Origin: Candidatus Vogelbacteria bacterium RIFOXYD1_FULL_44_32
GTDB lineage: Bacteria > Patescibacteriota > Minisyncoccia > Phycocordibacterales > XYD1-FULL-46-19
Assembly (NCBI GenBank): GCA_001823065.1
Contig: MHTJ01000004.1
Coordinates: 37,839-101,838, forward strand
DNA: 64,000 bases
Direction of reading: 5' to 3'
Both the position numbers and the translations under genes were made by a program. The notes beneath the pieces are model-generated. The model worked only from the letters and a program-made list of their open reading frames with translations. It searched no databases and was not told the origin of the DNA. Of this stretch, positions 29,591-54,690 are shown piece by piece; within the stretch, counting starts at the first letter, position 1; each line of letters starts with the position of its first letter.

Positions 29591-30592
29591 ATGATAAATA
29601 TTGATGAGCAAAACTTAAATTTAGCTGATTACCGGCAAAATCAAAAGACGGCTTTTTTGATGATGGAATATGATCGTCTAACCAAAAAAATTAGCGAAGC
29701 CGAAACAGTGGCCGACGGTGATAAAGATCTGGCCGAATTGGTGGCGACCGAAATCAATGATTTACAGCGTCAGAGGGGGGATATTTTAACCAGTATTCAA
29801 AATATTGTCGCCAAGGAAGTGGCCGATGATGAAGTGATCAATGAAGTGATTATGGAAATTAGAGCTGGCGCGGGCGGAGAAGAATCGGCTTTGTTTGCGA
29901 CCAATCTTAAAGAAATGTACGAGGCCTACGCGGTGGTGCAGGGCTGGGTTTTTCAAGTTTTAGATGAATCGCCGTCAGAACTAGGTGGCTACAAAGAAGT
30001 TTCAATTGAAATAAAAGGGAGAAATATTTATGATAATTTGCGTTATGAAACTGGGGTGCATCGGGTGCAGAGAATTCCCGCGACCGAAAAGCAGGGCCGG
30101 GTCCATACCTCCACGGCCTCGGTGGCGGTGATGCCGATTCGCAAAAAAACCAAAGTAGTTATTAACCCGGCTGATCTGGAAATAGAGACAACCCGCTCGG
30201 GTGGGGCGGGTGGCCAAAATGTGAACAAGGTGGAAACGGCGGTGCGGATAGTACACAAGCCAACTGGTATTGCTGTCCGTAGCCAAAGTGAGCGATTTCA
30301 GCAAAGAAATCGCGAAAAGGCGATGTTAATTTTGGAAGCCAAATTAAATGAGTTACAAGAGGTGGCTGACAAAAAAGAGGAGACAGACGAAAGGCGGAGC
30401 CAGATTGGCACAGGCGACCGAAGTGAAAAAATCAGGACCTATAATATTTTACAAGACCGAGTCACCGACCATCGCATCAAGGAATCTTGGCATGGGATTG
30501 AACGGATTTTAGCCGGTGACATCGGGCCGATTGTGAGGGCCCTGGCCGAGGCTGGTGGGGGCGTGATTGTCGCCGGGGAAGAGGAGGAGTAA
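29591..30592 (+). CDS. prfA: Peptide chain release factor 1
   Basis: GGQ motif ([11 protein letters not shown]) and the RF1-type PAT tripeptide ([14 protein letters not shown]). Confidence 0.9.
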
Positions 30593-30645: not shown

Positions 30646-31410
30646 ATGCAAAATACCCCGACTAATGAAAAAACAACCGCGGTAGGCGATCTAGTGCACA
30701 ATCTTTTTAAGCTTGGTGCTCATTTTGGTTACAGTCGGGTGCGTCGTCACCCTTCGGCTGACAAGTTTATTTTTGGTTACAAAAACAAGACGGCCATTAT
30801 TGATTTGGAAAAGACAATTATTTCACTAACCAAAGCCAAAGATTTTGTGCGGACTTTGGGTAGCGAAGGTAAGGCAGTGTTGCTAGTTGGTAATAAAAAT
30901 GAAGCCCGAGTGGCAGTCAAAAAAGCGGCTCAATTGGCTGGGTTGCCTTATTCGGCCGAGCGTTGGATAGGTGGTACTCTCACCAACACTAAACAAATTA
31001 AGACCCGACTGAAACGGTTGGAGGAAATAAAAGCCGCTGAAACTTCGGGTGAGATAATGAAATATACTAAAAAAGAAAGAGGATTAATTAGTAAAGAAAA
31101 AAATGATTTAGAGCGTCACTTTGGTGGAATTGTGGAGATGGCCAAAATGCCGGCCGCCCTGTTTGTGATTGATTCTACCGCGGAGGCAATTGCGATTGCG
31201 GAAGCTAACAAATTAAATATTCCGGTGATTGCCTTGTCTAATTCTGATTGCGATATTCGTGGTATTGCCTATCCGATTATTGGCAATGACGGTTCGGTGG
31301 GAACGATTGCTTTTTTTGCCAATGAAATTGCGGGGGCCTATATTGAAGGCCAGAAAAACCCGGTGACTAAACCAGCCGAGGTCAAAGTGGAAAACAAAGA
31401 GGCAGAGTAA
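30646..31410 (+). CDS. rpsB: 30S ribosomal protein S2
   Basis: GAHFGYSRVRRHP...AIIDLEKT. Confidence 0.9.
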   Translation: MQNTPTNEKTTAVGDLVHNLFKLGAHFGYSRVRRHPSADKFIFGYKNKTAIIDLEKTIISLTKAKDFVRTLGSEGKAVLLVGNKNEARVAVKKAAQLAGLPYSAERWIGGTLTNTKQIKTRLKRLEEIKAAETSGEIMKYTKKERGLISKEKNDLERHFGGIVEMAKMPAALFVIDSTAEAIAIAEANKLNIPVIALSNSDCDIRGIAYPIIGNDGSVGTIAFFANEIAGAYIEGQKNPVTKPAEVKVENKEAE

Positions 31411-31438: not shown

Positions 31439-31894
31439 ATGGCAGATACCCAATCAATTAAAGTTCTGCGCGATCAGACGGGAATTTCTCTAGCCGAATG
31501 CAAGAAAGCGCTAGATGAGGCTGGTGGCGATTTGGCCAAAGCCCAGGTGGTTTTGAAAGCGAAGGGGGCTGAAACGGCGGACAAAAAATCTGACCGGAAC
31601 CTTGGTTCCGGGGTAGTGGAGTGTTATATTCACGGGGCAGGGGCGATTGGGGCTATGGTAGAATTGGCTTGCGAGACCGACTTTGTGGCCAAAAATGTTG
31701 ATTTTAAAGCTTTAGCTTCGGATATTGCACTACATATAGTGGCCAGTGCTCCCGAAACGGTAGCCGAGTTGCTGGCTCAAGAATTTGTCAAAGACCCGAG
31801 TCAGACGGTGGAGACGCTTATCCAACAGGGAACTCAAAAATTTGGCGAAAGGATTGTGCTCACTCGCTTTGCGCGCTTTGCTCTAGGGGCTTAG
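31439..31894 (+). CDS. tsf: Elongation factor Ts (short form)
   Basis: LRDQTGISLAECKKALDEAGGDLAKA UBA-like N-terminus. Confidence 0.85.
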   Translation: MADTQSIKVLRDQTGISLAECKKALDEAGGDLAKAQVVLKAKGAETADKKSDRNLGSGVVECYIHGAGAIGAMVELACETDFVAKNVDFKALASDIALHIVASAPETVAELLAQEFVKDPSQTVETLIQQGTQKFGERIVLTRFARFALGA

Positions 31895-31900
31895 TTTTCT

Positions 31901-32320
31901 ATGATTTTTCTTATTACTATGACGGTTATATGTTTTGGGCTGGTCGCCTACTTAGTAGGTCGTCAGCTTTTGTTGTTACGCCGAGGTGAAGTGCAATTAA
32001 ACCAAGAAGCACCCACCTTATCTTTTGCTGATTATTTAAGTCTTAGTCTTGATAAAATGGCCGGCCAACTTTCCCACTTTAGCCACGAGCTAATGCACTT
32101 GGTGTCTATTCTATCTTTACTGGGGGCAAAAAAGGTGGCGGCGGTGGTCAAGCATAACACCGGGCGGATTGAGCGAGTCTTGGGTCAGGTTTTGCGGGCG
32201 ACCCATGAGAGGCGCAAGCGGGGCCGAGGGGAGCGGGGCTCGACGTCTATGTTTCTGCGCGAGATTGAGTTGCATCAGTCGAAGGTAAAGGAAAATTTAA
32301 ATACTTATTCTAGGAATTAG
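31901..32320 (+). CDS. Hypothetical membrane protein
   Basis: N-terminal transmembrane helix followed by a basic C-terminus; no recognised motif. Confidence 0.45.
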   Translation: MIFLITMTVICFGLVAYLVGRQLLLLRRGEVQLNQEAPTLSFADYLSLSLDKMAGQLSHFSHELMHLVSILSLLGAKKVAAVVKHNTGRIERVLGQVLRATHERRKRGRGERGSTSMFLREIELHQSKVKENLNTYSRN

Positions 32321-32363
32321 AATTTGTCGATGTTTGTTAAAAAATAGGTTATAGTAGATTTTT

Positions 32364-32436
32364 GCCGGCATAGCTCAGTTGGTAGAGCGCCACTTTTGTA
32401 AAGTGGATGTCCGGGGTTCGAACCCTCGTGCCGGCT
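32364..32436 (+). tRNA. tRNA-Thr (anticodon UGU)
   Basis: Cloverleaf: acceptor GCCGGCA/TGCCGGC, D arm GCTC-AGTTGGTA-GAGC, anticodon stem CCACT/AGTGG with loop TT-TGT-AA, T arm CGGGG-TTCGAAC-CCTCG. Confidence 0.85.
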
Positions 32437-32570
32437 CAGAGAGACGACAAAGCAAGCAAACTGCTTTGCTTGTGTGAGGGTGAGAAAAGATTTTTGTTGT
32501 TTTTCCAGCCGGGAAAATCAAAAATCTGGGGTTGAGGAAAAAACTTTTGGCGAAAAGTTTTTGAGGTGAC

Positions 32571-32592
32571 CGAACCCTCGTGCCGGCTCAGA
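32571..32592 (+). repeat. Exact 22-nt direct repeat of the tRNA-Thr 3' end (att-like)
   Basis: cgaaccctcgtgccggctcaga occurs at 32419-32440 (within/after the tRNA) and again at 32571-32592. Confidence 0.8.
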
Positions 32593-32626
32593 AGGATCTT
32601 TTGGGAAGTAAGAAAAGAGAAAGGAA

Positions 32627-32827
32627 TTGATTATGACCGAGACAGAAGAAATGATTCACCAGCGTTTTAAGAAGGCACTGGAAGAACACGGTCGGCGTTT
32701 GGACGATCCCGATTATCGCCGAAGATTGGAGATCTCGGCACTCCAGACCTCTGTCGCCGTTTCAGTATCAATCCAGGCGCAAAGACAGGCGGCGGCTATG
32801 GAGCACAGAAGTGGTCGCCGATATTAG
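32627..32827 (+). CDS. Small hypothetical protein (66 aa)
   Basis: AAAGGAA SD; a terminator follows (acggcccacagttgtgggccgtttctttttt, 32838-32872). Confidence 0.45.
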   Translation: MIMTETEEMIHQRFKKALEEHGRRLDDPDYRRRLEISALQTSVAVSVSIQAQRQAAAMEHRSGRRY

Positions 32828-32894
32828 GACGAACTAAACGGCCCACAGTTGTGGGCCGTTTCTTTTTTGGGTTTTTTTCGCTATACTCACCTCT

Positions 32895-33602
32895 ATGGAA
32901 GAAACTAAACAGTTGGGACACCTACACCCTCTCACCCAAATGATGAGTGAGATGTCGGATATTTTTCGCGAAATGGGTTTTCGGGTGGCCGATGGGCCCG
33001 AGAAAGAGTCCGAATGGAATAACTTCGACGCTTTAAATATCCCGGCCAATCACCCGGCGCGAGCGATGCAAGATACCTTCTGGGTAAAGCCGCATACAGC
33101 TGGCCAGCTGCTTCGAACTCATACCACTTCAGTATCACTACGGGAATTGGCAAAAAAACAGCTGCCACTACGGGTAGTGTCGCCTGGTCGTGTTTTCCGT
33201 AATGAAGCGACTGATGCTACTCATGAGGCGCAGTTCTATCAGTTTGATGGTCTCGCTATCGACCGACCCGGGGTAATTTCGATGGCTCACCTGAAAGGGG
33301 TGTTGTCGACTTTGTATAAAAGACTTTTTGGCGAAAATATCGAGATGCGCTTCCGGGCTAGCTTCTTTCCGTTTGTGGAGCCGGGAGTAGAAGTGGATAT
33401 TAAATGGGGCGACCGCTGGCTGGAAGTGGTCGGTGCCGGACTTTTGCACCCCAATGTTTTTAAAGCAGCCGGGATAGACCCGAATGAGTGGCAGGGGCTC
33501 GCGTTTGGTGGTGGGGTGGACCGCTTGGCGATGATCAAATACGGTATTGAGGATGTCCGGCATTTTTACCAAGGGGATACGCGTTTTCTCAAACAATTTT
33601 AA
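32895..33602 (+). CDS. pheS: Phenylalanine-tRNA ligase alpha subunit (compact)
   Basis: Class II aaRS motifs FRNEATDATHEAQFYQFDG and FFPFVEPGVEVD. Start is 7 nt after TATACT. Confidence 0.9.
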   Translation: MEETKQLGHLHPLTQMMSEMSDIFREMGFRVADGPEKESEWNNFDALNIPANHPARAMQDTFWVKPHTAGQLLRTHTTSVSLRELAKKQLPLRVVSPGRVFRNEATDATHEAQFYQFDGLAIDRPGVISMAHLKGVLSTLYKRLFGENIEMRFRASFFPFVEPGVEVDIKWGDRWLEVVGAGLLHPNVFKAAGIDPNEWQGLAFGGGVDRLAMIKYGIEDVRHFYQGDTRFLKQF

Positions 33603-33604
33603 TT

Positions 33605-34870
33605 ATGTGGTTCAAATATAAAGAAATCGAGAGTCATTTTGTGACGTCCTTGCCGGGAGTAGGAGCGGTGGCCGAGGCGCTTATTAACCATGCATTTGAG
33701 GTGGAAGAAATGGTAGAAAAAGATGGTGATATGGAAATGGATATTAAAATTTTGCCTGATAGGGCTAGTGACGCTAAAAGTGTGTTAGGTGTCGCGCGAG
33801 AAGTATCGGCTGTTATGAATTTGCCGCTTAAAGATGAATATAAATTTACAACGACCAAAGAATCGGCTCGAACTACGATAGAATTTTCGGCCAAAGTCAT
33901 TTCCGATCTGGTTGGTGTCGAATTTTCAGTTGAAGATATAAAGAGTTACCTCTCTCGAGTAGGAGTACTCGTTGAAGGAGAAGAAACACTGACAGCTCAT
34001 ATCCCCGCTGAGCGACAAGATTTAAATATTAAAGAAGATTTGGCCGATGAGGTGGCTCGCCTTTATGGTTACGCTAATGTACCGGCGCGGGCACTGCTTG
34101 CGCCGGTTGTCGCCCCTGTCGACCACCCTGACTTTATCCTTTCTAACCAAATTCGTGAATTCTTCGCCCGCGGTGGCTTTACGGAAGTTTATGGCTACTC
34201 TTTTACCGCAAAAGGCGTGGTGGAAATTGAAAAACCCTTGGCTTCCGATAAGGCATATCTGCGCACTAATTTAACTGATTGGATGTCAGCTACTTTAGTT
34301 TCTAATATCAAGCACTCACTATTTCCCAAAGATGAAGTAAAACTTTTTGAGATTGGTAATGTTTTTGTTTCCGAAGACGAAGAACAAAAGCGGATTTGCG
34401 TGGCTGCTAATATTTCACTTCAGTCTGTTATTAACGAACTAAAACAAGAATTTAATATCACCGAATTACCCGAGATTAAAAAGATCGAAGGTGGAGAAGT
34501 AGTTGAACTTTTGCTTTCAAGCTTAAAAGCTAAGGACGGCGCGGCCGATCTTTCGCCGTTTATTAAATCCGATGTCAACTATAAACCAGTCTCGGTCTAC
34601 CCCCGCATTGTCCGTGATATCGCTCTTTTTGTACCAGCCGGTACTGCTAGTAGCGAAGTGGGGGAGATGATTAAACAAAACGCAGGCCCGCTCCTTGCCG
34701 AAGGTCCTATCCTTTTTGATGAATTCACGAAGCCGGGCGAAGACCGTACTTCGCTCGCATACCGCCTGGCTTTCCAGGCTTCCGATCGGACATTGGAAGA
34801 TGCTGAAGTAAATACCCTAATGGAAAAAGTTTATAAGGTGGTGAAGGAAAGAGGTTGGGAAGTCAGATAA
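33605..34870 (+). CDS. pheT: Phenylalanine-tRNA ligase beta subunit (compact, lacks N-terminal tRNA-binding domain)
   Basis: B3/4-like region and a C-terminal FDX-ACB-like domain (SLAYRLAFQASDRTLEDAEV). It immediately follows pheS. Confidence 0.8.
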   Translation: MWFKYKEIESHFVTSLPGVGAVAEALINHAFEVEEMVEKDGDMEMDIKILPDRASDAKSVLGVAREVSAVMNLPLKDEYKFTTTKESARTTIEFSAKVISDLVGVEFSVEDIKSYLSRVGVLVEGEETLTAHIPAERQDLNIKEDLADEVARLYGYANVPARALLAPVVAPVDHPDFILSNQIREFFARGGFTEVYGYSFTAKGVVEIEKPLASDKAYLRTNLTDWMSATLVSNIKHSLFPKDEVKLFEIGNVFVSEDEEQKRICVAANISLQSVINELKQEFNITELPEIKKIEGGEVVELLLSSLKAKDGAADLSPFIKSDVNYKPVSVYPRIVRDIALFVPAGTASSEVGEMIKQNAGPLLAEGPILFDEFTKPGEDRTSLAYRLAFQASDRTLEDAEVNTLMEKVYKVVKERGWEVR

Positions 34871-34987
34871 GTGTGGCTAAATCGCCTTCGGCGATTACCC
34901 GGCCTTACCGGATTTTTTGGCAAGGTTTAGGGGAAGTGAGATAAAAAAGTAAAAAATAAACAGAAAAAGCCCTGTAGGCAGGACTTT

Positions 34988-35015
34988 TTCTGTTTATTGA
35001 CAAAAAATATAGATA
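34988..35015 (+). promoter_or_regulatory. Consensus sigma70-type promoter (TTGACA-16nt-TATAAT)
   Basis: TTGACA at 34988-34993 and TATAAT at 35010-35015; it is preceded by a hairpin terminator at ~34960-34985. Confidence 0.6.
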
Positions 35016-35149
35016 GTGTATAATATACTCAGACTGATTTCTGCTCCAAAGAAGGTTTAAAAAAATTGGTCGGAGCGCTGTTGCTTTGGCCACTCACTGG
35101 GACGTAAAGTTTTTTGCCGGCCATTGTGCGATGGTTAAGGAGGTATGAG

Positions 35150-35476
35150 TTGAATTTTTTTAGGCTCCTGTCAAAGAACCTGATAAACTTATTTGACACG
35201 TTCTTTGTCAGTAAGTTTATGGTGGGGGCGATGGTGTTTTTGTTCATCCTTGTCTCCTACACAGCAGGGCGTGTCCCAGCTTGGGAAAAACCTTGGACCA
35301 CCATGGAGAAATTCATGGAAGGGGGAAAAGTGCTGGCGGCGTTTGGGTTACTCGTAGTGATCGCAACCGTGATGTTGGCGGTTGGGTACGCTCTACGGGG
35401 CGAGGAAGTCGTCAGTGATACCCCAGAGGGATGGAGGAGGTGGTTGAAGAGGAACGATAATAAAAGTAGAAAATAA
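35150..35476 (+). CDS. Small membrane protein (island cargo)
   Basis: AGGAGG 6 nt upstream of a TTG start. Two predicted transmembrane helices (MVGAMVFLFILVSY and VLAAFGLLVVIATVMLAVGYAL). Confidence 0.5.
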   Translation: MNFFRLLSKNLINLFDTFFVSKFMVGAMVFLFILVSYTAGRVPAWEKPWTTMEKFMEGGKVLAAFGLLVVIATVMLAVGYALRGEEVVSDTPEGWRRWLKRNDNKSRK

Positions 35477-35576
35477 TATGAGCCGTGGGATGATGTTCAT
35501 CCCACGGCCTTTGCATGTATAATCCAATTGATAAAATAAGGAAAAATGCTAGTATAAATTAAAATAATAAGATTTT

Positions 35577-37595
35577 ATGCCATTAAAGGAAGATAAATAT
35601 AAGCTCTACTTGGCTTCTGGCATCCGCCTGTGGACGCTATTTTTCAAAGATGGTTATTCCCCTTATTTCAATAAAAAAGTTTCCCTGTTTGAACCGGCGC
35701 TCATAGACAATCAGTACACCGGTGAGCATCGCAAAATACCGATCAAAATTGCGACTAAGGACTTGGGTGAGATAAACAAATGCGATGCGGTGTTAGCCTA
35801 TATGAAAATGTACGATACCCAAGGCAATGGGCCAACGGGTACCGACAGCTCTTGGGAATGTGGTTATGCTATTGGGCAGGAAAAACCGACTATTATGCTG
35901 GTGGAAGATTTGGAACACCTCGACTATTACACATCCCAGTGGATGGTGACTTTTAGTATTGGTGCCATTTTAACTACAGATAAAGAGGTGGCGGAAAGTG
36001 CCCGGCACAGTGATAAGTTTACCCATACCGCCATTTTACTCTGCGAAAACAAAGAGCAGTTTGAAGACAAAATTATAGAGTATTTAGACAAATACTACCG
36101 CTCTATCTATGCACGTGAAGGCGAGATAAACTATTCCGTTGACCAGGAAATTAGAAAGTATGTCGACGAGAAAAATTTGCAGGAGTTTTTTGAGGAGTGC
36201 CAGAGTGGTATACCAGTTGAAGATAAACCCACCACTTGGTATTACGACAAAAAAACTAAATATAATGACCCCACCACCTATCTGGCGGTCTGCACGTCCG
36301 AGGTGGAGCGGGCCGGGCGTCTGGAAAACATAATTGAAAATAATTTTAACGACTTGCCACAGGTCCTTAAAAGTGAAATCGGACAGTTGCTGGAGCAGAT
36401 GGAAAATGACGGAGCCAGTCACGTGGCCGAGATGGCAAGCTACTGGCTTAATATTCCAGCGGCCAAGGTTAAAGACCGCCGGCAGGGCAAGAAAAAAACT
36501 CGCCCAACTATTTTTTATGAGTTATTTGATTTGGTCAGCCACCACATTGTCGCTTCGGAAAGATATTTTGAAGCAGATTTTGTTTATAAAGCCGGAGCAG
36601 TAATTGAAATATATAATTGGCTAAATACCTATGCCATAGATGATGTGTTTGACAGTTCGGCCACTAGGCAGGGTGAGTCGACACTGCATGAAAAATATGG
36701 CAGCCGGCGCAATGCTCTTCTGGTGGGAGGTATTGGCCATTGTCTTGCTCTTTATTTACTGTACGAGTTGACCAAAAAACAACCGGAAGCAGCCAAGGAC
36801 CTGCTTTCGAGCTTAAACAATGTTCAGAAACTAATGTATCTGGGGCAACCTCACGACATTGCTCTCACTTTTGACAGTCGTTGGCAATTAAAATCTTTTA
36901 TAAAAAAGAATAGTTTAGATACGGCCTTACAGCTTTATTTTAAAAGAATATACGGCATTTGCGGGGCGTTTTACGAGGAGATTGGTCGGATGGCGATGAA
37001 GGCGACCAATGTTGGTGCACAATTTTATGATCAAGAGGAAGTCGAGGAAGCCTGTGTTTCCATTGCGCGGCAATTTGGCTTAGTGCAGATGATTCGCAAC
37101 GATCTCGGCGATTTTATTACGGCGGCAGATATGCCGGGGATGAGCAAGGGGATGAAAGATACCTCTCATAACGACATCGCCGAAGGCAAGCTAACACTAC
37201 CTGTCATCTATACACTATTTAGTCCAGAGGTGTCGACGCGCGATAAAAAAATAGTTATCCGGGCACTTGGTAATCGACGACTGAAAGATTCGGCACGAGC
37301 GGAAATCAGTCGAATCATCTGGGAAAGTGGGGCGATAGAATTTTCCCTGCAGTTTATCGACTACTATGTGCGGGCGGTGCGAAGACAATATGTGCGCCAT
37401 ATTAACGAGACGCCGACCCGTTTGAAATGGATTTTGAAGCTGATGGATATTACCCCGCTCATTGATATTTCTTTTCGGCGGGTGGCTTTGGACAGAAAGT
37501 GGCGCAAACTAGAGCCCTTGCCTTTTTCGGACGACATGGTCGGTGAGTTGGATAAACTGGCCGAGAGGGGTAATTTTTTGGAATCACGGAAGTAA
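35577..37595 (+). CDS. Fusion protein: N-terminal nucleoside 2-deoxyribosyltransferase/LOG-like domain + C-terminal trans-isoprenyl-diphosphate-synthase-like domain
   Basis: N-terminus YKLYLASGI...DLGEINKCDAVLAYMKMYD...GTDSSWECGYAIGQEKPTIML matches the NDT motif DxxLGxYIPDEEDxGxxxELGYAxxxGK, including the catalytic Glu. C-terminus has an FARM-like AIDDVFD...RRN, a SARM-like VQMIRNDLGDF and GKxxxxDIAEGKLTLPVIY. Confidence 0.7.
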   Translation: MPLKEDKYKLYLASGIRLWTLFFKDGYSPYFNKKVSLFEPALIDNQYTGEHRKIPIKIATKDLGEINKCDAVLAYMKMYDTQGNGPTGTDSSWECGYAIGQEKPTIMLVEDLEHLDYYTSQWMVTFSIGAILTTDKEVAESARHSDKFTHTAILLCENKEQFEDKIIEYLDKYYRSIYAREGEINYSVDQEIRKYVDEKNLQEFFEECQSGIPVEDKPTTWYYDKKTKYNDPTTYLAVCTSEVERAGRLENIIENNFNDLPQVLKSEIGQLLEQMENDGASHVAEMASYWLNIPAAKVKDRRQGKKKTRPTIFYELFDLVSHHIVASERYFEADFVYKAGAVIEIYNWLNTYAIDDVFDSSATRQGESTLHEKYGSRRNALLVGGIGHCLALYLLYELTKKQPEAAKDLLSSLNNVQKLMYLGQPHDIALTFDSRWQLKSFIKKNSLDTALQLYFKRIYGICGAFYEEIGRMAMKATNVGAQFYDQEEVEEACVSIARQFGLVQMIRNDLGDFITAADMPGMSKGMKDTSHNDIAEGKLTLPVIYTLFSPEVSTRDKKIVIRALGNRRLKDSARAEISRIIWESGAIEFSLQFIDYYVRAVRRQYVRHINETPTRLKWILKLMDITPLIDISFRRVALDRKWRKLEPLPFSDDMVGELDKLAERGNFLESRK

Positions 37596-37653
37596 ATACC
37601 CTAATGGAAAAAATTTATATGGTGATGAAGGAAAAGGGGTACGAAGTTAGATA
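37588..37653 (+). repeat. Second, diverged copy of the pheT 3' end (direct repeat of 34805-34870, ~80% identity, ORF-preserving)
   Basis: ggaagtaaataccctaatggaaaaaatttatatggtgatgaaggaaaaggggtacgaagttagatag corresponds to gaagtaaataccctaatggaaaaagtttataaggtggtgaaggaaagaggttgggaagtcagataa. In the pheT frame it translates EVNTLMEKIYMVMKEKGYEVR*. Confidence 0.85.
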
Positions 37654-37666
37654 GTCTAAAACTACA

Positions 37667-38392
37667 ATGAAAATTATCGGTGTTAAGACGCCTCTGTTAA
37701 AAGCAGGAGATGATCTAATTCAGTTTATAATAAAAAACATCCCATCTCTCTCGGAGGGAAGTGTTGTTGTGGTCACATCAAAAATTGTAGCCTTGGCTGA
37801 AGGTCGGCTTGCTCCTTTGTCGGCAAAGGAAGCTATTATCAAGCGCGAGTCAAAGGAGGTGATTGAAACTCCCTATGGTTTCCTAACACTAACTAAAGAT
37901 GGCTGGTGTGTAAATGCCGGCGTTGATGAATCTAATGCTAAAGATGGTCTTATTTTACTACCCCTTGATGCTTTTCAGTCGGCCGAAGTTTTGTGTCGCT
38001 CTTTGCGTCAGAAATTTAAAATAAAAAAACTGGGTGTGCTTATTACTGATACTAAGAGTGTGCCGCTTCGCGTGGGCACAGTTGGGCGGGCGCTTGGTTT
38101 TGCTGGCTTTCAGCCACTGCGGAGCTATATCAACAAGCGTGATCTTTTTGGCCGTAAAAGTCGTTTTACAGAAAGTAATCTGGCAGACTCTCTCGCGGCG
38201 GCGGCAGTACTTCTGATGGGCGAGGGAAGCGAGCGTGTTCCACTGGCTGTCATACAGGAGGCACCTGTTACTTTTGTGGGAGTTGGCACTAGTCAGACTA
38301 CTAAACTGTCGTTACCGCCACAGCTAGATATTTTTCGTTACGTTTTTAGTCGGGCGTCTTCACCTCGTGCAAAGAAAAAACCGAAACGCTAG
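37667..38392 (+). CDS. CofE-like F420-0:gamma-glutamyl ligase family protein
   Basis: VVTSKIVALAEGR and NAGVDESN-type motif GVDESNAK characteristic of the CofE/FbiB N-domain family. Confidence 0.55.
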   Translation: MKIIGVKTPLLKAGDDLIQFIIKNIPSLSEGSVVVVTSKIVALAEGRLAPLSAKEAIIKRESKEVIETPYGFLTLTKDGWCVNAGVDESNAKDGLILLPLDAFQSAEVLCRSLRQKFKIKKLGVLITDTKSVPLRVGTVGRALGFAGFQPLRSYINKRDLFGRKSRFTESNLADSLAAAAVLLMGEGSERVPLAVIQEAPVTFVGVGTSQTTKLSLPPQLDIFRYVFSRASSPRAKKKPKR

Positions 38393-38422
38393 GTCGCGTT
38401 TCGGCTCTAGGGGCCGATATGG

Positions 38423-39438
38423 TTACAGCCCCTTTTCCAAGCTCTTCAAGACTTTCAGGTAAAGTCTTTTCACGATTTCCTCCTGCTTCTTGCCGGAGGC
38501 GGCATAGTGGTCTAGACCGGGGGCGGCGTTGATCTCAATGACGGTGTAGCGACCGGGCGCTTTTGTGATGTCGCTTTTTACCATGAGGTCGACACCGCAC
38601 ATTCGCAGACCCATGTCGGCTGTCAGTCGGATTGCGATTTTCTTAAACTCAGGATGGACGGCACCGGTGACATCCACCGAGTCGCCGCCGGTAGACAGGT
38701 TGGCATTGTCGAGCAGGTAGACTACTTCGCCCAGTTTTGGCACCGAGGAAAAGGCGAGTCCTTGCCGAGCCAGTTTTCCCGCAATGCGAGGGTCTCGCAC
38801 CTTTATCTTGGTGTCACGGCTTGAAGCGATGAAGTTTTCCTGCTTTTTGCGCAGGAGGGCGCGGATACTCAAACGCCCGTCGCCTGTGACGCTAAGTGGT
38901 TGCCGCTCATAGGCCGAGATCAGCTCGCCATCAAGGATGACCAGTCGATAGTCTTTGCCGGCGATCGGTCTCTGGACGAGGGCGATCTTGTCGCGGGTAA
39001 ATATGTAGCGCATCGCTTCATAAAATTCCCGCCTGTTGTGGACAAAAGCCACGCCGGTGCCTTGGCTGCCGCTGTTTGGTTTTACGACCACCGGAAAGCC
39101 AATTTTCTTGGCGTATTGGTAGGCGGCAGACAGGTTGCGCTCGGATCCGATTGCCTTGCACCACCAGTCGGCATAAAATGCCTCGCCGGGGACAGTGGGG
39201 TAGCCCATCTTCTTCATAAAGAAGTTGGCCCAATCCTTATCCTTGGCGATGTCCGAGGCACCGACCGGGTTTAGGTCCACCGTATTGTACCGGATGTACC
39301 GTTTGCGCCCACTTTTGTAGACGATCTGGCCGACGATGCCCCATGTGGGTTCCATCAATACTTTCGCCCCGATCAAGGGAGCGATTTCTTGGAGTAGGGT
39401 GCCGACGAGCGGCGTGGTGTTGCGCTTTTTCTTCTTCA
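38423..39438 (-). CDS. Stand-alone ATP-grasp ligase with cyanophycin-synthetase-type ATP-grasp domain
   Basis: VVVKPNSGSQGTGV...NANLSTGGDSVDVTGAVHPEF...GVDLMV...VIEINAAPGLDHY. Start chosen at MKKKKRNTTP (RBS GAAGGA); a longer N-terminus is possible. Confidence 0.65.
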
Positions 39439-39776
39439 TAGGGTTAATCCTTCTTTCTGCTTTTTTCTGCTTTGTTTCAAAATCTTGTTCATTCATACCA
39501 CAAATAATAGTAGCTGGCAAAGATTTGAACTCCTGTTTCTGTGATAAAATATGACTACTTTGTCTAATTACCGTTCTCTCTAAATAGGACTTTTTGTACC
39601 TAATGGGTATAAATTGGCTAAAATGGTGGCAGAGATGGGAGGGGGAAATAAGTACTAATTTGACTTTGTTTTTAGTGACTAAATATGCTAAAATGGAGGT
39701 ATAAAAATAGTATTTTTTGACCATATTTTAAGCCAATTTTACCCCGTCTTGTCGAGGTATTTATTTACATATTAAG

Positions 39777-41849
39777 ATGCCTAAAAAACCTGAAACTACC
39801 AAACGCCACTATGGGGCCGATGATATTGTGGTCCTAGAGGGCCTAGAAGCCGTGCGCAAGCGCCCCGGCATGTATATTGGCTCAACCGGCGAAGAGGGTC
39901 TCCAGCACCTCATGGTGGAGATTTTTGACAACTCGCGTGACGAAGCGATGAACGGCTATGCCGATGAAATTGAGGTGGCCATTTTGCCGGGCAATGTTAT
40001 CCGCGTGGTGGACAATGGGACTGGTATCCCCGTGGAAAAGCATAAAAAAACTGGGGTTTCCACTTTGGAAACCGTGCTCACAGTGTTGCACGCTGGAGGT
40101 AAATTTGAGGGTGATAGCTACAAAATATCGGGTGGTCTACACGGGGTGGGTGCCTCGGTGGTAAACGCCCTGTCCGAGTGGCTCTCGGCCGAGGTGCACC
40201 GCGATGGTGGCCGGTTTGTCCAGAGTTTTAAAATTGGTAAGAAAGACAAAGATGTTAAAAAGGCGGGCGCTTCTGACAAGCATGGTACGATTATTGCTTT
40301 CAAACCCGACGCGACCATTTTTTCGGAAACAGTTTTTGATTGGCAGAAGGTGGTAAACCACTTGCGCGGGCAGGCTTATCTCGTAAAGGGGGTGCGTATT
40401 CGCGCCATTGATGCGCGTGACTATGCGGGAAAAATAGACACCGACGGTGTGTTTTATTTGTCCGAGCTAAAACTGCCGGTCCCATCTCAAACTTTCTATT
40501 TTGAAGGTGGACTTTTGTCACTTATCAAATTTTACAATCAAAAAGAAAAGCTGGCTCATCGCAATATTTTTTATGTGGAAAAAGAGGCGAGCAATATTAT
40601 GGTGGAAATTGCTTTGCAATATATCGATGATATAGACGCCAAAGAAATTACTTATACCAACAACACTCGTACGCCCGAAGGTGGTACGCACCTCACTGGT
40701 TTCCGCACGGCGCTGACACGAACACTCAACGACTACGGCCGGAAAAATAATTTGATTAAAGAAAACGAAGACAACTTTACCGGCGACGACGTGCGCGAGG
40801 GTATTGTGTGCGTAGTTTCGGTCAAATTGCGTGACCCGCAGTTTGAAGGCCAGACCAAAGCCAAGCTCGGTAGTGTCGAGGCGCGCGGGGCGGTGGAAAC
40901 AGTTTTTGGCGAATCTTTCCAGATGTTTTTGGAAGAAAACCCCGATGACGCCAAGTCGATTATTTCCAAGGTGGTGCTAGCTCTCAAGGCGCGGAAGGCC
41001 GCCAAAGCCGCCAAGGATTCGGTTTTGCGCAAGGGTGCCCTCGATGGCCTAGCCCTACCGGGGAAGCTCGCTGATTGCCAGACGAGGAATGCCGAAGAAT
41101 CTGAGCTATTTATTGTGGAGGGAGACTCGGCTGGTGGTACGGCCAAGACGGGGCGGGATCGGCGGACGCAAGCCATTTTGCCACTGCGGGGCAAGATTTT
41201 GAATGTGGAAAAAGCCCGGCTCGATAAAATGTTGGCCTCCAAAGAAGTGAAGTCACTGGTGATTGCACTCGGCGCTGCTATTGGGGACACTTTTGATATT
41301 TCTAAACTTCGTTATCACAAAATAATTCTGGCCTCCGATGCCGACGTGGACGGGGCGCATATTCGCACTCTATTGCTGACGCTTTTCTACCGCTACTACC
41401 GACCACTTATCGAGGCGGGGCATTTGTATATTGCGCTACCACCTTTGTATATGATTAAAAAAGGTAAGGAGGTGGCCTATGCCTACAATGATGACCAGAA
41501 GGATGAAATAGTGGCCGCCATGGGGGGTATGGCGGCCGAGGCGGTCGTGGAAGTAAGTGATGGTCCGGCCGATGAAGTCGAAGAAGAATCGGCTGACGCG
41601 GTGGAGGAAGCCGAAACCAAAAAACGTTTTGCCAAAATACAGCTCCAGCGCTACAAGGGTCTCGGGGAAATGAATGCCGAACAGCTGTGGGAAACTACCA
41701 TGGATCCGGACACGCGCATTTTAAAACAAGTTACCATTGAGGACGCTGAAGTAGCTGACGGGGTGTTTGATGTTTTAATGGGCGCCGAGGTAGAACCCCG
41801 CCGGCTGTTTATTCAGACGCATGCCAAGATGGCGAATTTGGATATCTAG
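39777..41849 (+). CDS. gyrB: DNA gyrase / topoisomerase IV subunit B
   Basis: GHKL ATPase N-terminus (LEAVRKRPGMYIGS...LHAGGKF), Toprim EGDSAGG, and a C-terminal QRYKGLGEM. Confidence 0.9.
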   Translation: MPKKPETTKRHYGADDIVVLEGLEAVRKRPGMYIGSTGEEGLQHLMVEIFDNSRDEAMNGYADEIEVAILPGNVIRVVDNGTGIPVEKHKKTGVSTLETVLTVLHAGGKFEGDSYKISGGLHGVGASVVNALSEWLSAEVHRDGGRFVQSFKIGKKDKDVKKAGASDKHGTIIAFKPDATIFSETVFDWQKVVNHLRGQAYLVKGVRIRAIDARDYAGKIDTDGVFYLSELKLPVPSQTFYFEGGLLSLIKFYNQKEKLAHRNIFYVEKEASNIMVEIALQYIDDIDAKEITYTNNTRTPEGGTHLTGFRTALTRTLNDYGRKNNLIKENEDNFTGDDVREGIVCVVSVKLRDPQFEGQTKAKLGSVEARGAVETVFGESFQMFLEENPDDAKSIISKVVLALKARKAAKAAKDSVLRKGALDGLALPGKLADCQTRNAEESELFIVEGDSAGGTAKTGRDRRTQAILPLRGKILNVEKARLDKMLASKEVKSLVIALGAAIGDTFDISKLRYHKIILASDADVDGAHIRTLLLTLFYRYYRPLIEAGHLYIALPPLYMIKKGKEVAYAYNDDQKDEIVAAMGGMAAEAVVEVSDGPADEVEEESADAVEEAETKKRFAKIQLQRYKGLGEMNAEQLWETTMDPDTRILKQVTIEDAEVADGVFDVLMGAEVEPRRLFIQTHAKMANLDI

Positions 41850-42007: not shown

Positions 42008-42228
42008 GGCGCTCGCCTAGCTTCCCTTTCAAAACACATCGCCACACCTCTAGAGGTGTGGCGATTCTGCTCCACCGTGGCCGTTTGGCCTTGCCCCTGC
42101 TGGGGCAAAATACCTAAGGCCAAAACCCTGCCGGCCGACAGCTCCGCAAGGTTTTGGAAAGGGAACTAGGCTCACTAACTCGAAAAAGATAAATGGTCAG
42201 CAAAAGGAGTAAGCTCGCTGGGTTGGGG
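42008..42228. repeat. Structured intergenic repeat, family B copy 1
   Basis: Shares a ~170-nt core with 51637-51810 and 54513-54690 (cctttccaaacaca...ctgctccagcggggccgtttggcc...ggccaaaaccctgccggccg...ccgcaaggtttggaaaggg...ctcgctgggttgg). This copy has an extra ~35-nt insert before the 3' tail. Confidence 0.75.
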
Positions 42229-51636: not shown

Positions 51637-51810
51637 GCACTCGCCTAGCTTCCCTTTCCAAACACAGAAAAAGCCCCAGCGGGCTTTTCCTTCTGCTCCA
51701 GCGGGGCCGTTTGGCCTAGTGCCTACTGGCACAAAATTCTCCAAAGGCCAAAACCCTGCCGGCCGACACCTCCGCAAGGTTTGGAAAGGGAACTAGGCTC
51801 GCTGGGTTGG
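51637..51810. repeat. Structured intergenic repeat, family B copy 2
   Basis: Starts immediately after the rnc stop. Same core as copies 1 and 3 but with different hairpin inserts (aaaagccccagcgggctttt; gtgcctactggcac). Confidence 0.75.
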
Positions 51811-54512: not shown

Positions 54513-54690
54513 GGCACTCACCTCACTTCCTTTTCCAAACACATCGCCACACCTCTAGAGGTGTGGCGATTTTGCTCCAGCGGGGCCGTTTGGCCTCGTG
54601 TCTGCTGACACAACAATACCTAAGGCCAAAACCCTGCCGGCCGCCACCTCCGCAAGGTTTGGAAAAGGAAGGAGGTTCGCTGGGCTGGGG
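54513..54690. repeat. Structured intergenic repeat, family B copy 3
   Basis: Starts immediately after the smc stop. The outer stem changed compensatorily relative to copies 1 and 2 (cacttccttttccaaac / gtttggaaaaggaagg). Confidence 0.75.

Follow-up and report, generated by a model that had tools for sequence, protein, structure and literature searches.

The pheT locus and the duplicated pheT tail

The DNA analysed here is a window of 64,000 nt from the genome of Candidatus Vogelbacteria bacterium RIFOXYD1_FULL_44_32, an ultra-small groundwater bacterium of the Patescibacteria (Candidate Phyla Radiation [CPR]). The proteins of the window are a 100% match to the metagenome-assembled genome of that name, and all coordinates are given in window numbering. 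Within this window, the aminoacyl-tRNA synthetase gene pheT is followed by a short islet that holds only a small open reading frame (ORF) and a 672-aa fusion gene. The islet is bracketed by two copies of the pheT tail, and a CofE-like gene lies behind the second copy (Table 1). An initial annotation had taken this arrangement for the footprint of an integrative element that targets the 3' end of a conserved gene and brings a replacement for it.

A repeat search of the window paired 34805-34869 with 37589-37653 (65 nt, 86% identical) at a start-to-start spacing of 2784 nt. With the stop codons included, the copies are 66 nt each and agree at 56/66 positions (85%). On proper alignment the two 66-nt segments are related, beyond chance in shuffles, and the annotated duplication was upheld. 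Two of its details were revised: the identity had been put at about 80%, and the second interval had been given as 37588-37653, which is 1 nt too far left.

The differences between the copies are unevenly distributed. The first 24 nt, here called the core (GAAGTAAATACCCTAATGGAAAAA; 34805-34828 in copy 1 and 37589-37612 in copy 2), are identical, and all 10 differences fall in the remaining arm (34829-34870 and 37613-37654), that is, 0/24 in the core versus 10/42 in the arm (Fisher p = 0.010). The core occurs only twice in the 64 kb, even with three mismatches allowed, and gave no match in 100 shuffles. The similarity starts abruptly at 34805/37589 and ends with the stop codon (TAA versus TAG), and the flanks are unrelated. 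The stop codon of the fusion gene (TAA, 37593-37595) lies inside the core of copy 2 in a different frame, and the CofE-like start codon follows 12 nt after the end of copy 2. The duplication is real and not a chance match.

As the 495-kb scaffold in the European Nucleotide Archive and a Logan contig (SRR2090173), which were independently assembled, are 100% identical over 32001-41000, misassembly is excluded. In total, the duplication was reproduced exactly in three independent assemblies of this genome. A second pheT tail was found neither in relatives nor after other fusion genes in the loci examined, and it is thus confined to this genome.

As annotated, copy 2 is still open in the pheT frame; it reads EVNTLMEKIYMVMKEKGYEVR followed by a stop codon, with five conservative replacements relative to copy 1. 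The preservation of the ORF was correctly observed, but it carries less weight than had been placed on it. Because an open frame with the stop in place was kept in 36% of simulations with 10 random substitutions in the 42-nt arm, and the conservativeness of the replacements reached only p = 0.067, ORF preservation alone is weak evidence, suggestive rather than proof.

Table 1. Features of the pheT locus and its surroundings in window numbering
Feature	Position	Strand	Remarks
prfA	29591-30592	+	
rpsB	30646-31410	+	
tsf	31439-31894	+	
139-aa ORF	31901-32320	+	
tRNA-Thr	32364-32437	+	
pheS	32895-33602	+	
pheT	33605-34870	+	Target gene, intact, short 421-aa form; Pfam and NCBIfam matches; orthologues in L001-L007
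Direct repeat, copy 1 (attL-like)	34805-34870	+	Last 21 pheT codons and stop
Hairpins directly after pheT stop	34880-34998	+	Terminator-like; islet side of junction
Sigma-70-type promoter-like site (TTGACA-16-TATAAT)	34997-35024	+	12/12 matches; consensus scan only, not evidence of function
Small ORF	35150-35476	+	
13-bp G+C-rich hairpin after small ORF	35481-35509	.	Terminator-like
Two overlapping weaker promoter-like sites upstream of fusion gene	35510-35555	+	9/12 matches each, TG extension
672-aa fusion gene	35577-37595	+	Cargo
Direct repeat, copy 2 (attR-like)	37589-37654	+	Displaced pheT tail fragment
CofE-like gamma-glutamyl ligase	37667-38392	+	Outside repeats
ATP-grasp ligase	38423-39724	-	Outside repeats; convergent with CofE-like gene
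gyrB	39777-41849	+	

The target gene encodes a PheT with the B5, core and FDX-ACB domains and without B3_4, according to Pfam and NCBIfam. PheT proteins of this clade are generally about 400 to 440 aa long and lack both the B3_4 (editing) domain and the N-terminal tRNA-binding domain, and forms of 600 to 680 aa with B3_4 are found in more distant Paceibacterota. A stand-alone B3_4-domain protein is present in a cassette array at locus L008 (L-numbers label homologous loci in other genomes).

Insertion relative to conserved gene order

Six related genomes (pheT 46 to 73% identical) keep the order prfA-rpsB-tsf-(tRNA-Thr)-pheS-pheT and then continue with gyrB. The spacing between pheT and gyrB is 56 nt in L007, 161 nt in L004 and 437 nt in L003, and about 1 to 1.75 kb with unrelated ORFs in L002, L005 and L001. 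The small ORF, the fusion gene, the CofE-like gene and the ATP-grasp gene are all absent between pheT and gyrB in 6/6 relatives. At the DNA level, the window and L001 are homologous up to the pheT stop codon exactly, and then again from 96 nt before gyrB onwards. Gene order thus supports the view that the DNA between the two copies is an insertion relative to the conserved arrangement.

The initial annotation had proposed to look in relatives for pheT directly before the CofE-like gene. Since this order was found in 0/6 relatives, the entire 4.9-kb gap between pheT and gyrB, beyond the flagged 2.7 kb, is lineage-specific. The opposite pattern, in which both islet genes would lie at this place next to a single pheT tail, was not seen either: 0/6 relatives carry the genes there.

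The convergent pair of CofE-like (+) and ATP-grasp (-) genes forms a conserved module in three other Patescibacteria (L045, L047 and L049), in different neighbourhoods and each time among housekeeping genes. Because of this conservation, pheT followed by the CofE-like gene is plausible as the original order and hence as the state before the insertion, and in this lineage the pair probably followed pheT originally. The best NCBIfam model for the CofE-like protein was "putative folate metabolism gamma-glutamate ligase", which scored below its cut-off. All contigs encoding an identical PheT or CofE protein carry the same arrangement.

A mosaic import of pheT was considered because of the amino acid identities to L001 (96.7% for gyrB versus 73% for pheT), and it was rejected because the DNA identities (86% versus 73%) fit a gyrB that is simply more conserved.

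Signals, small ORF, and gene content of the islet

The terminator-like region behind pheT is composed of a small stem-loop (34880-34896), a second stem followed by a T-run, and a 20-bp hairpin (34955-34998). The scan also recovered the TTGACA-16-TATAAT site that the initial annotation had called a promoter. No terminator-like site was found by the scan between the fusion gene and the CofE-like gene.

The small ORF had been annotated as a membrane protein gene led by a Shine-Dalgarno sequence. In agreement with this, GGAGG lies upstream of its start, and the product contains two hydrophobic stretches. It has 108 aa when read from TTG and 85 aa when read from the ATG at 35219, as in public gene calls. 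The product matched nothing in Pfam, NCBIfam, PADLOC or PHROG, and a search of 1.84 billion representative proteins returned only itself and one weak repetitive match (E = 3e-7). By these searches, the small ORF is an orphan without relatives.

In Rfam, the only match in the islet was a sub-threshold one to ohsC, a type I antitoxin small RNA, at 34925-34993. It covers the large hairpin immediately before the orphan small ORF with its hydrophobic product and was treated as noise (29 bits versus a cut-off of 50).

Between the copies there is no recombinase, as the initial annotation had stated, and no transfer gene was found there. Of the features commonly expected of a genomic island, the islet shows direct repeats on both sides, one of which overlaps the 3' end of a conserved gene, and it shows neither an integrase nor an atypical composition. 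Its flanking repeats, together with the lack of any recombinase or transfer gene, agree with the definition of a cis-mobilizable element (CIME). No element with specificity for the pheT tail was seen in any locus examined. Thus, of the integrative-element footprint that had been annotated, the insertion at the pheT 3' end with attachment (att)-like repeats is supported, and an integrase-type origin is conjectural.

The fusion protein

The annotated fusion of a domain like that of nucleoside deoxyribosyltransferases (NDT) with a polyprenyl-synthase-like domain was borne out by matches to PF05014 and PF00348. The protein comprises an N-terminal NDT-superfamily domain (about residues 1-190), a variable helical linker, and a C-terminal domain resembling trans-isoprenyl diphosphate synthases (IDS). 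It is full length at its C-terminus, as judged from 35 homologues. The family has 51 members with 36 to 66% identity, and every member with a named source is from Patescibacteria.

For the N-terminal domain, PF05014 (nucleoside 2-deoxyribosyltransferase) just passed (29.1 bits versus a cut-off of 28.8), and the PHROG match to nucleoside deoxyribosyltransferase was weak and confined to the domain level. The domain carries the motif GTDSxWECGYA, of which GTDSxWExGY is invariant, and D90, W93, E94, G96 and Y97 are invariant in 36 homologues. A structural model of the domain (predicted local distance difference test score [pLDDT], 81) had NDT, MilB, DNPH1 and BcmB as its best Protein Data Bank matches, with template modelling (TM) scores of 0.4 to 0.58. 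Motif and model indicate that the domain belongs to the NDT superfamily, with E94 as the predicted catalytic glutamate.

The C-terminal domain matched PF00348 with E = 2e-17, and Foldseek gave target-normalised TM scores of about 0.7 to many IDS structures. Of its Asp-rich motifs, DDVFD is invariant, and NDLGD stands where the second DDxxD is expected. All NCBIfam equivalog scores for this domain were far below their cut-offs. The fold is predicted to be IDS-like, and the family models assign no specific IDS reaction to it. The enzyme as a whole is predicted to couple cleavage or transfer at an N-glycosidic bond with binding of a prenyl diphosphate.

A role in defence was rejected, as the PADLOC models gave only one marginal match (E = 0.006) for the fusion protein. 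A phage origin was likewise rejected, since no relatives of the fusion protein were found in IMG/VR and the PHROG match is limited to a weak domain hit. A literature search on this combination of NDT-like and IDS-like domains returned nothing relevant. A subfamily of the fusion protein in L010 (8001-10175, P0033) has an extra N-terminal HTH_17 (excisionase-type) domain, and its gene lies among six tRNA genes between 99-nt inverted repeats.

The fusion gene as wandering cargo in other genomes

In total, 24 distinct fusion-gene loci were compared. No neighbour family recurs among them except a large serine recombinase, which is found in two. Nucleotide homology between the islet and all the other fusion loci is confined to the coding region (35586-37516). 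At a comparable level of protein divergence, the housekeeping genes around pheT keep full synteny, and this contrast with the fusion gene, which has no conserved neighbours, argues that the fusion gene has moved between sites. No conserved partner gene emerged from the 24 loci, and this candidate was dropped.

Repeat pairs bracket the fusion gene in 8/23 loci, compared with 4/117 control genes (Fisher p = 5.3e-5). For this test, repeats were counted within 1.5 kb on either side, and the controls were other genes in these loci encoding 300 aa or more. The initial annotation had proposed to search other genomes for the fusion gene next to pheT or an integrase. The fusion gene adjoins pheT in none of the 23 further loci, and two of them (L008 and L014) have a large serine recombinase nearby.

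The bracketing sequences vary. In L032, the fusion gene lies directly after tRNA-Gln between two 114-nt direct repeats that are 98% identical, each consisting of a terminator hairpin and a copy of the last 17 nt of tRNA-Gln; no integrase was found within 7 kb. In L027, the duplicated sequence around the fusion gene is a 78-nt UPF0047 gene tail, and in L030 an identical 26-nt terminator stands before and after it. In L008 and L015, a conserved unit of about 200 nt with a G+C-rich hairpin flanks the fusion gene in inverted orientation. The fusion gene of L008 is near tRNA-Ser and the large serine recombinase, and a tail fragment of a helix-turn-helix (HTH) gene follows the cassette; that of L014 is near a large serine recombinase and tRNA genes. 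Judged from these loci, the vehicles differ between genomes, and the common feature is cassette-like behaviour. The unit of L008 and L015 was considered as a shared vehicle and rejected, as it is absent from the window.

Two of these loci are more elaborate. L032 (6721-11096) contains tandem cassettes after tRNA-Gln, with the fusion gene first, then a histidine-phosphatase/PfkB-kinase pair between 41-nt direct repeats, followed by NUDIX, GNAT and GrpB genes. L008 (5761-12130) is array-like: behind tRNA-Ser lies a large serine recombinase gene between the arms of a perfect 121-nt inverted repeat, and the units of about 200 nt, which end in CCGCCA like the 3' end of this tRNA, separate two cassettes, one with the HTH and fusion genes and one with the B3_4-domain protein and a 274-aa protein. 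This array resembles a cassette or inversion system driven by a recombinase; that the repeat measures exactly 121 nt in two assemblies could partly be an assembly effect.

These observations invite a broader idea, which we regard as speculative and unlikely as it stands. A family of minimal single-gene cassettes without a recombinase may carry the fusion gene as cargo and spread among Patescibacteria by recombination into the 3' ends of tRNA and housekeeping genes, each time with a short copy of the target end. Large serine recombinases acting in trans, or the DNA uptake and recombination functions of the cells themselves, would mobilise these cassettes. If so, this would be a cassette lifestyle distinct from that of integrons, insertion sequence elements and classical islands, and the pheT islet would be one frozen example.

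Origin of the islet

From the repeat with its core and arms, the insertion relative to synteny, the nomadic repeat-bracketed cargo and the lack of a recombinase, we infer that the islet is an inserted cassette. It would have entered as a circle, or as circularised DNA, carrying a homologue of the pheT tail, by a single crossover in the 24-nt core, and would now be an integrase-less islet of the CIME type. We give this explanation a probability of roughly 0.6. The assignment to the CIME type follows from the presence of att-like sites together with the lack of any recombinase found.

The inserted cassette would span 34829-37612 (2,784 bp) and consist of a pheT-tail arm, terminator hairpins, a promoter with the orphan small ORF, and a second promoter with the fusion gene. 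The exchange partners would have been a chromosome with the order pheT, core, native arm and CofE-like gene, and a circle of 2,784 bp with the order fusion-gene end, core, alternative arm, terminators, promoter and small ORF, and promoter and fusion gene. A single reciprocal crossover within the 24 nt common to both would leave pheT intact, finished by the incoming arm (copy 1), with the terminators of the cassette behind it. The tail that pheT formerly had in the chromosome (copy 2) would be displaced 2.8 kb downstream, directly before the CofE-like gene. The latter would be cut off from pheST transcription and would probably be read from the promoter of the fusion gene. Today, the cassette would be mobile only through a recombinase acting in trans or through host recombination. 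The predicted junction of the empty site is ...GAAGATGCT + core + ATTTATATGG...TAG + TCTAAAACTACAATG, and that of the circle is ...GGAATCACG + core + GTTTATAAGG....

Several details of the locus would follow from such a single crossover. An identical core with diverged arms fits an exchange between diverged tails better than the uniform decay of a duplicate. The similarity would end at the stop codon because both arms were once functional pheT ends before unrelated DNA. The intact fusion ORF that ends inside the core, as well as the terminators directly behind the new pheT end, would also be explained.

On the other hand, a number of results weigh against this explanation. With the tyrosine integrase of L010 and the large serine recombinase of L008 as tblastn queries, no recombinase was found in the 64-kb window. 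The repeats at other fusion loci are heterogeneous (direct, inverted, gene tails and terminators), and no single mechanism is demonstrated by them. In composition the islet is ordinary: its GC content is 0.44 versus 0.46 for the window, and the fusion gene, with z = +0.5 for GC content at third codon positions and z = -1.6 for codon-usage distance, is not atypical for the genome; the initial annotation had proposed to compare GC content and codon usage with those of flanking genes. As the nearest relatives are different species with only 72 to 80% DNA identity, the absence of the islet genes from them neither dates nor proves the event. The contigs, proteins and viral contigs searched yielded neither an empty site nor an alternative occupant nor a circular junction; the exact circle and empty-site junction strings were absent from the viral contigs, and an exact look-up of the predicted empty-site pheT allele (with the copy-2 tail) in a collection of 15 billion proteins found none. 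Finally, at the 10 differing sites, relatives agree with copy 1 versus copy 2 at a ratio of 6:3, which is opposite to the naive expectation if copy 2 is native. Decay of copy 2 after the insertion could also give this ratio, so the polarity would fit a decayed native arm as well as a donor arm from a close relative and does not discriminate between them. A comparison with 120 pheT homologues did not identify the native arm either, as the closest tail to copy 2 is copy 1 and the polarity is ambiguous.

The main rival explanation invokes no mobile element. A linear donor fragment with the order pheT, small ORF and fusion gene could have been taken up by transformation and joined by homology-facilitated illegitimate recombination, anchored in pheT by homologous recombination at one end and joined illegitimately at the other end 66 nt before the recipient's pheT stop through the microhomology GAAGTAA, so that the tail was duplicated by accident. 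This would account for the missing recombinase, for the host-like composition (as expected from a related donor), for the arm now on pheT being closer to the tails of relatives, and for the fusion ORF ending exactly in the first 7 nt of the repeat; flanking repeats that differ in each genome also point to homology-driven rather than site-specific events. However, 24 identical bases followed by 24% divergence would be unlikely for orthologous tails (p of about 0.01 to 0.02), and no donor with the pheT-fusion order is known, the fusion gene lying beside pheT in none of the other 23 loci. We consider a linear import unlikely.

A narrower form of the cassette explanation, which we hold to be rather improbable, is that of a true site-specific element whose own tyrosine or large serine integrase, encoded next to one att site, was later deleted; this would be the decayed element of the initial annotation in the strict sense. 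The architecture fits such an element in that the 3' end of a conserved gene lies in a direct repeat and a replacement tail is followed at once by terminators, and homologues of the cargo occur near large serine recombinases and tRNA genes (L008 and L014) or with a duplicated tRNA 3' end (L032). Against it, the repeats enclose only 2.7 kb in which the genes are closely spaced, and none of the listed ORFs resembles a decayed recombinase gene. Inspection by eye revealed no inverted core-binding sites in the repeat, and the att-like sequences differ in every genome, with no dedicated integrase specificity visible. The sequence accommodates both a site-specific integrase and homology-driven junctions and does not decide between the two. 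By comparison, it is extremely unlikely that there was no insertion at all and that the islet genes are old residents next to a second tail produced by local duplication, chance or an assembly artefact. The typical composition and the lack of a known empty site would suit this scenario, but the repeat match is far beyond chance and identical in three assemblies, six relatives lack the islet genes at the locus, the cargo shares no neighbour with any homologue, and the second pheT tail is found in this genome only.

Other repeats in the window

Two further repeats were observed in the window. The last 22 nt of tRNA-Thr (32419-32440) recur exactly about 130 nt downstream, at 32571-32592. The same arrangement is found in L001 (6952-7197) with a near-identical spacer, far more conserved than coding DNA. 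In L002 (6883-7225), the tRNA 3' end differs, and the downstream copy matches the L002 version; thus, the copies co-vary. This repeat may be a homogenised att-like remnant or a functional tRNA-linked RNA. In addition, an interspersed structured repeat of about 170 nt occurs at 42021-42173 (just after gyrB), 51640-51806 and 54526-54684, and also in L001 (13741-13871), the copies being about 88% identical. Its parts are an outer stem, a core that is highly conserved, and an inner hairpin in which the sequence varies and the pairing is kept. The repeat matched no Rfam family.

Significance and comparison with known systems

Mobile DNA in the CPR is poorly charted. As the genomes are tiny and gene order is highly conserved, clean insertion scars are seldom found and are informative when they are. 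As a footprint the islet is of an ordinary type, and it shows that an essential aminoacyl-tRNA synthetase gene can receive foreign genes at its end and stay intact. Of greater interest is a by-product, the evidence that the fusion gene behaves as a wandering, repeat-bracketed cassette across Patescibacteria. The islet also flags an uncharacterised two-domain enzyme, which combines a domain of the N-glycosidase/transferase superfamily with a prenyl-diphosphate-binding fold, as a recurrently transferred accessory function. If this mobility is real, the gene is probably under episodic selection; nucleotide salvage, cell-envelope chemistry and conflict with phages or hosts are examples of where such selection might act, and the fusion enzyme would be worth biochemical study.

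Among known systems, CIMEs have lost their integration and transfer genes and retained attL and attR (PMC5704250). Like the islet, CIMEs such as those at the fda 3' end of Streptococcus thermophilus consist of two direct repeats at the 3' end of a housekeeping gene with cargo only in between. They differ in that they derive from integrative and conjugative elements (ICEs) or integrative and mobilizable elements (IMEs) of Firmicutes and move by accretion when an ICE with the same att site comes in. The islet is tiny by comparison (2.8 kb with one conserved gene) and lies in Patescibacteria, and no ICE, IME or integrase specific for pheT is known.

The pheT locus also resembles elements that replace the end of a coding gene. 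The e14 element and phage 21 integrate into icd of Escherichia coli and bring a replacement gene end. Islands specific for dusA likewise integrate at the end of a protein-coding gene (PMC4482086). As in the islet, the target of such elements stays intact through a diverged copy of the gene end, and the displaced original end is found at the far junction. Unlike the islet, which has no integrase and in which the replaced part extends 14 codons beyond the core, these elements carry their own integrase and measure 10 to 50 kb. Islands at tRNA and transfer-messenger RNA (tmRNA) 3' ends follow the same attL/attR logic of 3'-end duplication, and the cargo homologue in L032 has exactly such a setting. 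The islet differs from them in its protein-coding target and in the lack of an accompanying integrase.

Integration without an element-borne enzyme offers a further parallel. A Campbell-type single crossover, or homology-facilitated illegitimate recombination after natural transformation, places an insert beside a homologous anchor, as in the islet. When a circle integrates by a single crossover, precisely the segment that it shares with the chromosome ends up as direct repeats on either side. RecA-dependent exchange normally requires a longer identical stretch than the 24 bases of the core. Integron cassettes, too, are promoter-poor single-gene units that lack a recombinase of their own and are bracketed by recombination sites, and L008 is array-like in a similar way. 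In contrast to these cassettes, the islet has no attC-like structured site and no IntI-type integrase, and its repeat is the tail of a coding gene. Overall, the islet belongs to a known class, that of islands and prophages which target gene 3' ends and bring a replacement end, together with their integrase-less derivatives, here in an under-studied phylum.

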